From Escherichia coli (lineage in GTDB: Bacteria; Pseudomonadota; Gammaproteobacteria; Enterobacterales; Enterobacteriaceae): 64,000 nucleotides of DNA. The translations under genes and the position numbers were made by a program. The DNA lies in assembly GCF_044647545.1 (NCBI RefSeq), contig NZ_CP172818.1. One strand, 5' to 3'. The notes under the pieces were generated by a model, which worked only from the letters and a program-made list of their open reading frames with translations, did not search any database and was not told the DNA's origin. This document shows, one piece after another, positions 2,530 through 8,555 of the stretch; position 1 is the first letter of the stretch, and every line of letters starts with the position of its first letter.

Positions 2530-3552
2530 ATGTTTCAGCAGCAAAAAGACTGGGAAACAAGAGAAAACGCGTTTGCTGCTTTTACCATGGGACTGCTGAC
2601 TGATTTCTGGCGTCAGCGTGATGAAGCAGAATTTACTGGTGTGGATGACATTCCGGTGCGCTTTGTCCGTTTTCGCGCACAGCACCATGACCGGGTGGTA
2701 GTCATCTGCCCGGGGCGTATTGAGAGCTACGTAAAATATGCGGAACTGGCCTACGATCTGTTCCATTTGGGGTTTGATGTCTTAATCATCGACCATCGCG
2801 GGCAGGGACGTTCCGGTCGCCTGTTAGCCGATCCGCATCTCGGGCATGTTAATCGCTTTAATGATTATGTTGATGATCTGGCGGCATTCTGGCAACAGGA
2901 GGTTCAGCCCGGTCCGTGGCGTAAACGTTATATACTGGCACATTCGATGGGCGGTGCGATCTCCACATTATTTCTGCAACGCCATCCAGGTGTATGTGAC
3001 GCCATTGCGCTAACTGCGCCAATGTTTGGGATCGTGATTCGTATGCCGTCATTTATGGCACGGCAGATCCTCAACTGGGCCGAAGCGCATCCACGTTTCC
3101 GTGATGGCTATGCAATAGGCACCGGGCGCTGGCGCGCGTTGCCGTTTGCTATCAACGTACTGACCCACAGCAGACAGCGATATCGACGTAACTTACGCTT
3201 CTATGCTGATGATCCAACGATTCGCGTCGGTGGGCCGACCTACCATTGGGTACGCGAAAGTATTCTGGCTGGCGAACAGGTGTTAGCCGGTGCGGGTGAT
3301 GACGCCACGCCAACGCTTCTCTTACAAGCTGAAGAGGAACGCGTGGTGGATAACCGCATGCATGACCGTTTTTGTGAACTCCGCACCGCTGCGGGCCATC
3401 CTGTCGAAGGAGGACGGCCGTTGGTAATTAAAGGTGCGTACCATGAGATCCTTTTTGAAAAGGACGCAATGCGCTCAGTCGCGCTCCACGCCATCGTTGA
3501 TTTTTTCAACAGGCATAACTCACCCAGCGGAAACCGCTCTACAGAGGTTTAA
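2530..3552 (+). CDS. pldB: lysophospholipase L2, 340 aa
   Basis: 340-aa ORF with alpha/beta hydrolase GHSMGG motif; conserved context. Confidence 0.92.
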   Translation: MFQQQKDWETRENAFAAFTMGLLTDFWRQRDEAEFTGVDDIPVRFVRFRAQHHDRVVVICPGRIESYVKYAELAYDLFHLGFDVLIIDHRGQGRSGRLLADPHLGHVNRFNDYVDDLAAFWQQEVQPGPWRKRYILAHSMGGAISTLFLQRHPGVCDAIALTAPMFGIVIRMPSFMARQILNWAEAHPRFRDGYAIGTGRWRALPFAINVLTHSRQRYRRNLRFYADDPTIRVGGPTYHWVRESILAGEQVLAGAGDDATPTLLLQAEEERVVDNRMHDRFCELRTAAGHPVEGGRPLVIKGAYHEILFEKDAMRSVALHAIVDFFNRHNSPSGNRSTEV

Positions 3553-3559
3553 ATTTCTT

Positions 3560-4360
3560 ATGTATCAGGTTGTTGCGTCTGATTTAGATGGCACGTTACT
3601 TTCTCCCGACCATACGTTATCCCCTTACGCCAAAGAAACTCTGAAGCTGCTCACCGCGCGCGGCATCAACTTTGTGTTTGCGACCGGTCGTCACCACGTT
3701 GATGTGGGGCAAATTCGCGATAATCTGGAGATTAAGTCTTACATGATTACCTCCAATGGCGCGCGCGTTCACGATCTGGATGGCAATCTGATTTTTGCTC
3801 ATAACCTGGATCGCGACATTGCCAGCGATCTGTTTGGCGTAGTCAACGACAATCCGGACATCATTACTAATGTTTATCGCGACGACGAATGGTTTATGAA
3901 TCGCCATCGCCCGGAAGAGATGCGCTTTTTTAAAGAAGCGGTGTTCAAATATGCGCTGTATGAGCCGGGATTACTGGAGCCGGAAGGCGTCAGCAAAGTG
4001 TTCTTCACCTGCGATTCCCATGAAAAACTTCTGCCACTGGAGCAAGCGATTAACGCTCGCTGGGGCGATCGCGTCAATGTCAGTTTCTCTACCTTAACCT
4101 GCCTGGAAGTCATGGCGGGCGGCGTGTCAAAAGGCCATGCGCTGGAAGCAGTGGCGAAGAAACTGGGCTACAGCCTGAAGGATTGTATTGCGTTTGGTGA
4201 CGGGATGAACGATGCCGAAATGCTGTCGATGGCGGGGAAAGGCTGCATTATGGGCAGTGCGCACCAGCGTCTGAAAGATCTGCATCCGGAACTGGAAGTG
4301 ATTGGTACTAACGCCGAGGACGCAGTGCCGCATTATCTGCGTAAGCTCTATTTATCGTAA
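3560..4360 (+). CDS. yigL: HAD-family sugar/pyridoxal phosphate phosphatase, 266 aa
   Basis: ATG at 3560 in frame with longer track ORF; HAD motifs (DLDGTLL, GDGMND). Confidence 0.9.
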   Translation: MYQVVASDLDGTLLSPDHTLSPYAKETLKLLTARGINFVFATGRHHVDVGQIRDNLEIKSYMITSNGARVHDLDGNLIFAHNLDRDIASDLFGVVNDNPDIITNVYRDDEWFMNRHRPEEMRFFKEAVFKYALYEPGLLEPEGVSKVFFTCDSHEKLLPLEQAINARWGDRVNVSFSTLTCLEVMAGGVSKGHALEAVAKKLGYSLKDCIAFGDGMNDAEMLSMAGKGCIMGSAHQRLKDLHPELEVIGTNAEDAVPHYLRKLYLS

Positions 4361-4435
4361 TCGTTCTTTATTTGGTCAGTTGTCAACCTGATACTTCGCT
4401 ACAATGGATACTCGTTAATCAAAGAGTTTTCCATT

Positions 4436-5335
4436 GTGGCGCTACTTATCATCACCACGATTCTGTGGGCCTTCTCCTTTAGCTTTTATGGCGAGTACCT
4501 TGCGGGGCACGTCGATAGCTATTTTGCGGTTCTGGTGCGCGTTGGCCTGGCGGCACTCGTTTTTCTGCCGTTTCTGCGTACCCGTGGCAATAGCCTGAAA
4601 ACGGTCGGCCTGTATATGCTGGTGGGCGCGATGCAGCTCGGTGTGATGTATATGCTGAGTTTCCGCGCCTATCTCTACCTGACGGTCTCCGAACTGTTGC
4701 TGTTCACCGTACTGACGCCGCTCTACATCACGCTGATTTATGACATCATGAGTAAGCGCCGTCTGCGCTGGGGCTATGCTTTTAGCGCCTTGCTGGCGGT
4801 GATTGGTGCCGGGATTATTCGCTATGATCAGGTCACCGACCATTTCTGGACTGGCTTATTGCTGGTGCAACTCTCCAATATCACTTTTGCCATCGGCATG
4901 GTGGGTTACAAACGTCTGATGGAAACTCGCCCGATGCCGCAGCATAACGCCTTTGCGTGGTTCTATCTTGGCGCGTTCCTGGTGGCAGTGATTGCATGGT
5001 TCTTGCTGGGAAATGCACAGAAAATGCCGCAAACCACGTTGCAATGGGGCATTCTGGTGTTTCTTGGCGTGGTGGCTTCCGGGATTGGCTACTTTATGTG
5101 GAACTACGGCGCGACGCAGGTGGACGCCGGAACGCTGGGCATTATGAATAATATGCACGTTCCGGCAGGGCTGCTGGTAAACCTGGCTATCTGGCACCAA
5201 CAGCCGCACTGGCCAACGTTTATTACAGGCGCGCTGGTGATCCTGGCCTCACTGTGGGTGCATCGTAAGTGGGTCGCTCCGCGCTCTTCACAAACGGCAG
5301 ATGATCGCAGGCGTGATTGCGCGCTGAACGAATAA
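4436..5335 (+). CDS. yigM: EamA/DMT-family membrane transporter (biotin transporter BioP/YigM), 299 aa
   Basis: 299-aa polytopic membrane ORF with GTG start; conserved position between yigL and metR. Confidence 0.85.
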
Positions 5336-6176
5336 ATGCTTCTGTAATCGGCTGACGCTGCTCTCCATCGCGCACGGCGGCGTACAGTCGGCTCCACAAG
5401 CCTTCGCCCAGGGTTTTGGTCACCACCAGACCCTGGCGCTCAAAACTCTCAACTACCCAATGCGGCAGCGCGGCAATACCCATCCGCGCGGCAACCATCT
5501 GAATCAACAATAAGGTGTTATCGACGCTTTTCAGTGACGGGCTGACGCCTGCCGGCTGAAGAAAATGCCGCCAGACATCCAGTCGACTACGCTGCACCGG
5601 ATAAATCAACAGCGTCTCGCTGGCGAGATCTTCCGGTGTAATTCGCGTTTTCGCCGCCAGTGGATGGTCAGGTGCTAACACCAGACGCACTTCATAGTCG
5701 AACATCGGCGAATAATGCAGGCCACTGCGCGGCAGAATATCGGACGTCATCACCAGATCCAGCTCGCCCTGTTGCAACGCAGGCTGCGGATCAAACGTTA
5801 CGCCCGATTTAAAATCCATCTCCACCTGCGGCCAGTTCTTATGGAAATTTTCTAATGCGGGCGTCAGCCACTGAATACAGCTATGGCACTCAATGGCAAT
5901 GCGCAGGCGCGTCTGCTGCGGTTCATTGCAGGCTTGCAGTGCCTGGCTAATTTGCGGCAGCACCTGATTTGCCAGTTGCAACAGGATTTCTCCCTGCGGT
6001 GTAAAGCGAAGCGGCTGGCTTTTACGCACAAATAGCCGGAAGCCAAGGCGTTGTTCCAGATCGCTAAACTGGTGAGACAGGGCGGATTGCGTTTGATGCA
6101 ACGTCGCCGCAGCGGCTGCGAGTGAGCCGCAGTTCCGCAACGCTTGTAGCGTTTTCAGGTGTTTTACTTCGATCAT
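5223..6176 (-). CDS. metR: LysR-family transcriptional activator of metE/metH, 317 aa
   Basis: 317-aa ORF with N-terminal LysR HTH, divergent from metE. Confidence 0.93.
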
Positions 6177-6293
6177 GAAAGTCCTTCACTTCGGCATGAA
6201 TAATTTGCGCTTGAGGAATATACAGTAACCGCCAATTATGGATGTGTAAACATCTGGACGGCTAAATACTAAAAATTCCATAAGGGGCATATA

Positions 6294-8555
6294 ATGACAA
6301 TTCTTAATCACACCCTCGGTTTCCCTCGCGTTGGCCTGCGTCGCGAGCTGAAAAAAGCGCAAGAGAGTTATTGGGCGGGGAACTCCACGCGTGAAGAACT
6401 GCTGGCGGTAGGGCGTGAACTGCGTGCTCGTCACTGGGATCAACAAAAGCAAGCAGGTATCGACCTGCTGCCGGTGGGTGATTTTGCCTGGTACGATCAT
6501 GTCCTGACCACCAGCCTGCTGCTGGGTAACGTTCCGGCGCGTCACCAGAACAAAGATGGTTCGGTAGATATCGACACCCTGTTCCGTATTGGTCGTGGAC
6601 GTGCGCCGACTGGCGAACCTGCGGCGGCGGCGGAAATGACCAAATGGTTTAACACCAACTATCACTACATGGTGCCGGAGTTCGTTAAAGGCCAACAGTT
6701 CAAACTGACCTGGACGCAGCTGCTGGAGGAAGTGGACGAGGCGCTGGCGCTGGGCCACAAGGTGAAACCTGTGCTGCTGGGGCCGGTTACCTGGCTGTGG
6801 CTGGGTAAAGTGAAAGGTGAACAGTTTGATCGCCTGAGCCTGCTGAACGACATTCTGCCGGTTTATCAGCAAGTGCTGGCAGAACTGGCAAAACGCGGCA
6901 TCGAGTGGGTACAGATCGACGAACCCGCGCTGGTACTGGAACTACCGCAGGCGTGGCTGGACGCCTATAAACCCGCTTACGACGCGCTCCAGGGGCAGGT
7001 GAAACTGCTGCTGACTACTTATTTTGAAGGCGTAACACCAAATCTCGACACGATTACTGCGCTGCCTGTTCAGGGGCTGCATGTGGACCTTGTACATGGT
7101 AAAGATGACGTTGCTGAACTGCACAAGCGCCTGCCTTCTGACTGGCTACTGTCTGTGGGTCTGATCAATGGTCGTAACGTCTGGCGCGCCGATCTTACCG
7201 AGAAATATGCGCAAATTAAGGACATTGTCGGCAAACGTGATTTGTGGGTGGCATCTTCCTGCTCACTGCTGCACAGCCCCATCGACCTGAGCGTGGAAAC
7301 GCGTCTTGATGCAGAAGTGAAAAGCTGGTTTGCCTTCGCCCTACAAAAATGCCATGAACTGGCACTGCTGCGCGATGCGCTGAACAGTGGTGATACGGCG
7401 GCTCTGGCAGAGTGGAGCGCTCCGATTCAGGCGCGTCGTCACTCTACTCGTGTACATAATCCGGCAGTAGAAAAGCGTCTGGCGGCGATCACCGCTCAGG
7501 ACAGTCAGCGTGCGAATGTCTATGAAGTGCGTGCTGAAGCCCAGCGTGCGCGTTTTAAACTGCCCGCGTGGCCGACCACCACGATTGGTTCCTTCCCGCA
7601 AACTACGGAGATTCGTACCCTGCGTCTGGATTTTAAAAAGGGTAATCTCGACGCCAATAACTACCGCACGGGCATTGCGGAACATATCAAGCAGGCCATT
7701 GTTGAGCAGGAACGTTTGGGACTGGATGTGCTGGTACATGGCGAGGCCGAGCGTAATGACATGGTGGAATACTTTGGCGAGCATCTGGATGGCTTTGTCT
7801 TTACGCAAAACGGTTGGGTACAGAGCTACGGTTCCCGCTGCGTGAAGCCACCGATTGTTATTGGTGACGTTAGCCGCCCGGCACCGATTACTGTGGAGTG
7901 GGCAAAATATGCGCAATCCCTGACTGATAAACCGGTGAAAGGGATGTTGACCGGCCCGGTGACTATTCTCTGCTGGTCGTTCCCGCGTGAAGATGTCAGC
8001 CGTGAAACCATCGCCAAACAAATTGCGCTGGCGCTGCGTGATGAAGTGGCCGATCTGGAAGCCGCTGGAATTGGCATCATCCAGATTGACGAACCGGCTC
8101 TGCGCGAAGGTTTACCGCTGCGTCGCAGCGACTGGGATGTGTATCTCCAGTGGGGCGTAGAGGCCTTCCGTATCAACGCCGCCGTGGCGAAAGATGACAC
8201 ACAAATCCACACTCACATGTGTTATTGCGAGTTCAACGACATCATGGATTCCATTGCGGCGCTGGACGCAGACGTCATCACCATCGAAACCTCGCGTTCC
8301 GACATGGAGTTGCTGGAGTCGTTTGAAGAGTTTGATTATCCAAATGAAATCGGTCCTGGCGTCTATGACATTCACTCGCCAAACGTACCGAGCGTGGAAT
8401 GGATTGAAGCCTTGCTGAAGAAAGCGGCAAAACGCATTCCGGCAGAGCGTCTGTGGGTCAACCCGGACTGTGGCCTGAAAACGCGCGGCTGGCCAGAAAC
8501 CCGCGCGGCACTGGCGAACATGGTGCAGGCGGCGCAGAATTTGCGTCGGGGGTAA
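6294..8555 (+). CDS. metE: cobalamin-independent methionine synthase, 753 aa
   Basis: 753-aa ORF beginning [14 protein letters not shown]; canonical MetE. Confidence 0.96.

Follow-up and report, generated by a model that had tools for sequence, protein, structure and literature searches.

The window analysed here is a stretch of 64,000 nucleotides of Escherichia coli DNA (RefSeq assembly GCF_044647545.1, contig NZ_CP172818.1). It carries two convergent genes, namely bioP (yigM; plus strand, 4436–5335), an ORF with a GTG start and 299 codons followed by TAA, and metR (minus strand, 5223–6176), an ORF with an ATG start and 317 codons followed by TAA. The two genes meet tail to tail and share positions 5223–5335, a segment of 113 nt that includes both stop codons.

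The BioP (YigM) protein was matched by Pfam EamA in two stretches, the second of which ends at residue 275, and by the NCBIfam model TIGR00950 with a score of 310 bits (cut-off 230), ending at residue 273. Its AF2 model has ten helices and an overall pLDDT of 90.5, and Pfam and AF2 together give the two EamA repeats and the ten transmembrane helices of a DMT/EamA transporter. The product is named a biotin transporter in RefSeq, and its transport function has been published (PMC5120140). MetR contains the Pfam domains HTH_1 (residues 5–63) and LysR_substrate (residues 86–288) and was matched over its full length (1–317) by the NCBIfam MetR equivalog NF011950 with 741 bits (cut-off 382). It is identical to PDB 5fo5 over residues 1–92, and the MetR protein of N. 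meningitidis (PDB 4ab5) aligns with residues 87–296. The N-terminal HTH_1 domain, the LysR substrate domain and the divergent metE neighbour identify it as the LysR-type regulator of metE/metH. Both partners of the overlap are thus well-characterised genes and not hypothetical ORFs, which is one of the criteria of Pallejà et al. (2008) for a real overlap.

An earlier, sequence-only reading of this DNA had reported that yigM and metR overlap by about 113 bp on opposite strands, and the ORF list gives exactly 5223–5335. As that reading proposed, the ends were compared with the curated coordinates of E. coli K-12. In the RefSeq annotation of MG1655, bioP lies at 4011076–4011975 (plus strand) and metR at 4011863–4012816 (minus strand), so the stop codons are placed with the identical 113-nt overlap and not apart from each other. 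The same overlap is present in a strain annotated by PGAP whose sequence matches the window at 100% identity, and the locus (2 kb) was found at an identity of at least 95% in 5,422 of 5,426 complete E. coli genomes. When one genome per species was scanned, 80 loci were obtained, all of them from Enterobacteriaceae, with BioP proteins 81–100% identical to that of the window. These loci of the genome collection, together with K-12 and strain FDAARGOS_497, made up the set of 82 loci used for measuring the overlap. Both ORFs are open in all 82. The overlap is 113 nt long in 69 of them; the other lengths are 116 nt (nine loci), 98 nt (two) and 68 nt (one). From the start of bioP to the start of metR (1741 nt), the alignment is gapless in all 81 sequences compared. 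BioP of 299 and MetR of 317 residues are found in nearly all of the 80 Enterobacteriaceae species and in Yersinia, which corresponds to the orthologue lengths expected of real overlapping genes by Pallejà et al. (2008). The arrangement is also conserved beyond very close relatives, another of their criteria, since it extends over Enterobacteriaceae, Yersinia, and Dickeya with its relatives.

In a survey of 338 genomes, 54 of the 968 overlaps exceeding 60 bp were considered possibly real, and all of these were convergent (PMC2478687). The usual cause of long annotated overlaps was the misprediction of a start codon, and 124 of 178 convergent overlaps were misannotations by 3' extension, through a frameshift or the loss of a stop codon (PMC2478687). 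Start-codon misprediction cannot explain the overlap studied here, because the ends of a tail-to-tail overlap are set by stop codons. In spite of the fact that most annotated prokaryotic overlaps above 60 bp are misannotated (PMC2478687), it is practically inconceivable that an annotation or sequencing error has over-extended one ORF and that the true genes do not overlap: stop codons and not start choices define the overlap, the arrangement recurs in curated K-12, in 5,422 E. coli genomes (at an identity of at least 95%) and, without an indel, in 80 other species, both proteins fit full-length family models, and purifying selection is seen in both frames at the centre of the overlap, as described below. 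The over-extended annotation offered as a possibility by the sequence-only reading was accordingly dropped, its ends being stop codons that agree with curated K-12 and its frames being open and free of indels in 81 sequences.

Within the overlap, codon position 1 of BioP faces position 1 of MetR, position 2 of BioP faces position 3 of MetR, and position 3 of BioP faces position 2 of MetR. Since third positions face second positions, a third-position change that is silent in one gene alters an amino acid of the other. Column entropies were calculated over 81 species, and the synonymous sites of the overlap were tested against the non-overlapping parts of each gene. The position entropy of 5223–5260 is like that of bioP-only coding sequence, while in 5261–5312 the variation moves to the third positions of MetR.

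At the metR end of the overlap, the segment 5226–5255 encodes the MetR tail, residues 308–317, on the minus strand and crosses the helix-10 part of bioP on the plus strand. The third positions of BioP have an entropy of 1.05 bits here, against 1.03 bits in bioP-only sequence, and the MetR residues 308–317 that face them are hypervariable, as would be the case for a passenger of the bioP frame. It should be noted that MetR hardly varies at S313, P311, P307 and D305, as the first and second codon positions of BioP would lead one to expect; this is neutral with regard to selection on the tail.

At the opposite end, 5288–5332 encodes the BioP tail, residues 285–299, on the plus strand and crosses the end of the MetR core (residues 283–297). 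The roles are exchanged in this segment: the third positions of MetR vary about as much as they do in metR-only sequence, and BioP residues 285–298 vary at their second positions, which makes this tail the putative passenger of the metR frame. MetR residues 289–302 are almost invariant.

Between the two tails lies a core at 5256–5287 that is constrained on both strands, where BioP W274–S284 (WVHRxWVAPxS) is encoded opposite MetR R297–P307 (xxAERPxxDxP). In its central part, 5270–5282 (TGGGTCGCTCCGC), ten positions do not vary, and C occupies 5275 in 80 of 81 sequences and 5277 in 76 of 81. Entropy is zero at the synonymous third positions of three MetR codons (A299, R301, P302) and two BioP codons (A281, P282), and those of BioP V280 (0.10 bits) and MetR E300 (0.33 bits) are nearly fixed. 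The entropy expected at such synonymous sites is 0.7–1.3 bits, and only 0–4% of such sites are invariant. Taken by codon, MetR 299–302 have 0–0.33 bits against the expected 0.7–1.2, and codons 283–296 show approximately normal synonymous variability; BioP 280–282 have 0–0.10 bits against the expected 1.3, and codons 264–277 are approximately normal. These results indicate purifying selection in both frames at about 5256–5287, whereas one frame drifts in 5226–5255 and in 5288–5329. The overlap is therefore genuine, as one of the two possibilities raised by the sequence-only reading had it, as far as the coding sequences are concerned: both frames are constrained centrally and open in all species compared. 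Judged from these alignments, dual coding would be limited to roughly a dozen to thirty of the 113 bases, i.e. about a quarter. At the level of the sequences compared, the data demonstrate that bioP and metR are mutationally coupled through a doubly constrained core of approximately 13–30 nt.

Both stop codons are dictated by the partner gene. The bioP stop TAA (5333–5335, plus strand) is imposed by F281–I282 of MetR, whose codons TTY ATH on the minus strand read DAT RAA on the plus strand, so that 5333–5335 must be TRA; all 81 sequences have TAA there. The metR stop TAA (5223–5225, minus strand) is followed by an in-frame back-up stop at 5220–5222, and this pair (5220–5225) is imposed by F262-I263-(I/T)264 of BioP. 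At least one of the two metR-frame triplets of 5220–5225 is a stop codon in 81 of 81 sequences. When codons were resampled synonymously without altering the partner protein, no stop codon occurred in the tail segments in 67–70% of the trials. Taken together with the partner-imposed stops, this means that selection on the tails is not required for them to be open and for the stops to be fixed. A depletion of stop codons as a sign of such selection was considered and discarded, since open frames are expected (P about 0.67–0.70). For the same reason, the view of the sequence-only reading that the overlap is unusual stands with respect to the missing spacer and the rarity of overlaps longer than 60 bp, but not with respect to the open antisense frames, for which the chance of meeting no stop is about 0.67–0.70. 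The constant lengths (299 and 317 residues, 113 nt) likewise follow from stops that are forced by conserved residues of the partner.

We propose that the functional part of BioP extends to about residue 284, comprising helix 10 and the conserved HRxWVAPxS motif, and that of MetR to about residue 302–307. The functional ends of the two proteins would then interpenetrate over only about 13–30 nt (5256–5287). Past this core, each ORF would read on over the functional sequence of its partner until it meets a stop codon arising from the conserved Phe-Ile of that partner, and the outcome would be a BioP tail of 15 residues and a MetR tail of 10–15 residues, both drifting as passengers. The BioP tail 285–299 is predicted to be dispensable on the grounds of its low pLDDT, which is only 64 and 54 in the two final blocks of the AF2 model (residues 281–299), of natural 284-residue forms of the protein (locus L030 and the clusters P0076, with 42 members, and P0077, with 66 members), and of BioP lengths of 281–291 residues in genera without the overlap. 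The passenger model does not explain one feature of the alignment, namely that 5331 and 5334, the synonymous sites of MetR I282 and F281, are invariant, which fixes E299 of BioP and the TAA stop. On the whole, bioP and metR are very probably two real genes whose tail-to-tail overlap is genuine, old in evolutionary terms and built as the codon-level comparison suggests.

The design of the Keio collection touches directly on this segment. The metR deletion reportedly spares only the last six metR codons. Going by this design, it should presumably remove BioP from about residue 270 on, that is, the end of helix 10 and everything after it. Like the yigM deletion, that of metR in the Keio collection shows synthetic lethality with bioA and sensitivity to an inhibitor of BioA, and Côté et al. 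(2016), who state that yigM and metR ‘overlap substantially’, ascribe its phenotype to the concomitant disruption of yigM (PMC5120140). The same feature was invoked there only to account for a genetic artefact (PMC5120140). The overlap is thus already known, both from the RefSeq and EcoCyc annotation of K-12 and from Côté et al. (2016). We did not find the partition by codon, the forced stops or the distribution among taxa in the literature consulted, and the codon-level dissection, together with the hint of a secondary un-overlapping, is a modest addition.

In practice, a deletion, a tag or recoded codons at the 3' end of either gene will also change the other, and the metR mutant of the Keio collection is at the same time defective in biotin transport. 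Genome recoding or codon optimisation must spare approximately 5256–5287. The locus also offers a clean textbook case of how a long tail-to-tail overlap is put together, namely from a short dual-coded core, a passenger tail on either side and stop codons that conserved residues of the partner determine.

If both tails were functional, the entire 113 nt would be dual coding under selection on both proteins. The invariance of BioP E299 and the TAA stop, with the facing MetR synonymous sites 5331 and 5334 never changing, agrees with such a reading, as do the constant protein lengths over 80 species. However, BioP 285–298 and MetR 308–317 are the most variable parts of the two proteins and vary exactly at the synonymous sites of the partner, and the forced stops suffice for the constant lengths. 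The Keio metR deletion, taken to cut BioP from about residue 270, abolishes BioP function (PMC5120140), but it also takes away the end of helix 10 and the HRxWVAP motif and is therefore silent on residues 285–299. Natural BioP proteins are truncated at residue 284, and genera without the overlap have BioP of 281–291 residues. We therefore regard functional tails on both sides as very unlikely.

The absence of a spacer has consequences for transcription. In a scan of 4300–6300, no intrinsic terminator was found in or next to the overlap; the sole terminator-like match lies inside metR (5610–5622), and one match is fewer than expected from shuffled sequences. Bidirectional terminators stand between convergent genes of the same orientation as bioP and metR, but here there is no spacer, and the G+C-rich hairpin with its A-tract and U-tract is missing from the region of the stops. 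With the genes leaving no space for a terminator between them, their mRNAs must share a complementary stretch of at least 113 nt. A region of Rho termination has been mapped on the plus strand at K-12 position 4011704 (score 5.07, p 1.3e-12), which corresponds to about 5064 of the window, inside yigM, at the coarse resolution of 800-nt windows (Adams et al. 2021, PMC7815308, Supplementary file 2). Plus-strand transcription thus appears to be ended by Rho and not by an intrinsic terminator. The curated Term-seq 3' ends listed in PMC7815308 contain none for metR or yigM, and our search of the literature for antisense or 3'-end data on bioP–metR returned nothing beyond the Rho-region entry of that paper.

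The RNA of the overlap is no more stable than shuffled sequences on either strand (z +0.97 and +0.29). Downstream of the bioP stop and inside the metR ORF, two candidate RNA hairpins are present on the plus strand (5348–5391 and 5406–5439). The segment 5348–5439 has a fold z of −2.3, 94–96% of the cells are paired in 81 species, and the pairing is better on the plus-strand RNA than on the minus-strand RNA; the covariation is weak. These hairpins were rejected as intrinsic terminators for want of a U-tract. Their role may be to shield the 3' end of a bioP mRNA terminated by Rho. On the minus strand, an inverted repeat at 5127–5166 (z −3.9) was set aside as a by-product of conserved codons, its third positions being paired in only 27–35 of 81 sequences.

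Biotin synthesis consumes S-adenosylmethionine. An excludon-like arrangement could therefore be imagined in which selection retains the overlap since the expression of metR, and with it the methionine/SAM status, can tune biotin uptake, or the reverse, by way of convergent transcription or mRNA pairing. The two mRNAs are complementary over at least 113 nt without an intrinsic terminator between them, Rho curbs plus-strand read-through in this region (PMC7815308), the overlap is conserved over several families, and the plus-strand hairpins within metR are well preserved. For arfA–mscL of E. coli, antisense cross-talk between convergent 3' ends is also documented (PMC10070815). This pair, like the excludons (PMC7154746), consists of convergent genes with 3'-overlapping transcripts, and bioP–metR resembles them in geometry only. 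An antisense regulatory effect has been demonstrated for them, whereas the conservation of bioP–metR needs no regulatory explanation: the constraint at the protein level and the forced stops fully account for the conserved length of the overlap, the Serratia group and Erwiniaceae manage without it, and its RNA has no unusual structure (z +0.97 and +0.29). Regulation as the reason for keeping the overlap is improbable in our judgement, and a new question would be opened only if antisense regulation of bioP and metR were demonstrated.

The arrangement was further compared among more distant Enterobacterales. Yersinia has the 113-nt overlap with BioP of 299 and MetR of 317 residues. Dickeya zeae and a relative of 57% identity have a 98-nt overlap with BioP of 299 and MetR of 312 residues. 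In Serratia marcescens, a 36-nt spacer with a hairpin lies between the genes (BioP 286, MetR 314 residues), and in Chania the spacer is 3 nt long (286 and 316 residues). In Erwinia toletana and Pantoea agglomerans, a DUF1456 gene separates bioP from metR, BioP having 287 and 284 and MetR 312 and 313 residues, respectively; the spacer of Erwinia toletana also contains a hairpin. Among named homologues, BioP has 299 residues in Pectobacterium, Brenneria, Sodalis, Cedecea, Chimaeribacter and Nissabacter, and these lengths imply, by proxy, that the overlap is present in Pectobacterium, Brenneria and Sodalis. BioP is of variable length (281–291 residues) in Erwinia, Pantoea and related Erwiniaceae and has 286–287 residues in Serratia and Gibbsiella, and MetR has 312–316 residues in the genera without the overlap.

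The end of BioP, ‘SLWV...WV’, is also present in P0125, a 51%-identical homologue that lies in another gene neighbourhood, away from metR, and can therefore be regarded as ancestral. Since, in addition, the homology to the Neisseria protein ends at residue 296 of MetR, the MetR tail past RP302 would be the antisense of ancestral bioP in the genera that have the overlap. The MetR tail of Chania, RPGAGLANVKPL, resembles that of Yersinia, RPNAGVPITKPL, in register, in spite of the lack of an overlap in Chania. When the DNA of the MetR tails was anchored at R301 and compared with the Yersinia overlap, Chania agreed at 19 of 36 positions (P 0.0007), and the P values were 0.006–0.02 for Erwinia toletana (with a shift of two codons), 0.03 for Pantoea and 0.04–0.05 for Serratia. 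Other in-frame offsets gave an identity of 25–33%. The MetR tail DNA of Chania also agreed with the 3' end of its own bioP, in the register of the overlap, at 18 of 36 positions (P 0.008).

These similarities, which are short and weakly significant and come from four non-overlapping and three overlapping outgroup loci, tilt the balance somewhat towards a history in which the overlap predates the split of Enterobacteriaceae, Pectobacteriaceae, Yersiniaceae and Erwiniaceae and was secondarily resolved in the Serratia/Chania clade and in Erwiniaceae. The overlap would have arisen once bioP and metR had become convergent neighbours, and its resolution in these two lineages would probably have proceeded via duplication of the shared segment. 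Local alignment of the 3' ends of bioP and metR within Serratia and within Erwinia, as well as of E. coli with Serratia segments, gave no duplication remnant above the level of shuffled sequences.

A contrary history has a real, if lesser, chance of being correct. The non-overlapping state of the Serratia/Erwinia type would be ancestral in it, and a microhomology-mediated deletion would have removed the spacer and both 3' ends, either once with lateral spread or several times. The distant BioP homologues have 282–296 residues and do not adjoin metR, Neisseria MetR aligns only to about residue 296–302 of the E. coli protein, and the non-overlapping genera have a hairpin in the spacer, as in an ordinary convergent pair. 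The lack of a duplication remnant within Serratia or Erwinia points in the same direction, and parsimony is neutral: on the species tree, one gain and two losses are no more parsimonious than three gains or a lateral replacement. BioP homologues at an identity of 51% or less, none of which adjoins metR, cannot polarise the history. Against an ancestral non-overlap stand the MetR tails of the very genera concerned, which match in register the Yersinia tail, i.e. the antisense of ancestral BioP helix 10, and the identical junction in three families, which needs repeated identical deletions or transfers. An ancient overlap with secondary resolution hints that gene overlaps can be undone again in evolution.

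The most far-reaching reading joins this history with regulation: Rho-braked convergent transcription over the 113 nt would couple the methionine/SAM regulator to biotin uptake, and the ancient overlap would have been escaped by two lineages via duplication. That both parts hold together is improbable. If the reading were true, the escape of two lineages by duplication would be a documented case of the ‘un-overlapping’ of genes.

Finally, bioP–metR belongs to a small class, that of long convergent overlaps that are both real and conserved. The conserved overlaps of this class described by Pallejà et al. (2008, PMC2478687) likewise involve bona fide genes, exceed 60 bp and occur in several genomes; they also share with bioP–metR an origin by the loss or displacement of a stop codon and 3' extensions that are less constrained than the cores. 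The conserved long convergent overlaps of Rogozin et al. (2002), as far as they are presented through the citation in PMC2478687, are of the same kind. The name metR does not occur in the main text of PMC2478687. The overlap between bioP and metR, unlike those treated in that paper, has been retained in three or more families of Enterobacterales.

Window positions 5331 and 5334, the third positions of the MetR codons for I282 and F281, are synonymous sites, and neither of them varies in the 81 species of the gapless bioP-metR alignment. Their invariance fixes BioP E299 (GAA) and the TAA stop codon, while the remaining BioP tail drifts. This invariance is left unaccounted for by the passenger-tail model, according to which BioP residues 285-299 and the MetR tail drift, being read across the functional sequence of the partner gene. 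A natural premature stop at BioP codon 285, found at 3853-3855 of the locus L030 and in the protein clusters P0076 and P0077, gives a protein of 284 aa and an overlap of 68 nt. One of these two clusters is Salmonella Gaminara, with 66 member sequences.

Two plus-strand hairpins lie shortly 3' of the bioP stop within the metR ORF, at 5348-5391 and 5406-5439. They are 94-96% paired in the 81 species, and the pairing is higher in the plus RNA (0.94 and 0.96) than in the minus RNA (0.77 and 0.87). The covariation is weak and a U-tract is absent at both hairpins. A plus-strand region of Rho-dependent termination within yigM (bioP) was reported at K-12 position 4011704 (window ~5064; Rho score 5.07), as mapped at the coarse resolution of 800-nt windows (Adams et al. 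2021, Supplementary file 2, PMC7815308). The hairpins may serve for the 3'-end protection of a Rho-terminated bioP mRNA.

Within bioP itself, the inverted repeat CCGGAACG...CGTTCCGG (5127-5166) gives a strong minus-strand fold (z -3.9). As the cross-species comparison showed that the repeat is not kept at third codon positions, codon conservation probably gives rise to it as a side effect.

The mechanically called yigL ORF (3434-4360) begins with GTG at 3434 and encodes 308 aa, whereas RefSeq starts yigL 42 codons further in, at 3560, for a protein of 266 aa. The long ORF would run into the last part of pldB (2530-3552); with the annotated shorter start, this co-directional overlap disappears.

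In other genomes, a DUF1456 gene on the metR strand separates bioP from metR in Erwinia toletana (L088, 3410-3886) and Pantoea agglomerans (L092, 3406-3888). An Enterobacteriaceae-type bioP-metR locus was also seen in CACSKA010000013.1 (L061), titled 'Chryseobacterium sp. 18061'. Its BioP and MetR are 83% and 92% identical to those of the window, and contamination or mislabelling of this assembly is probable.
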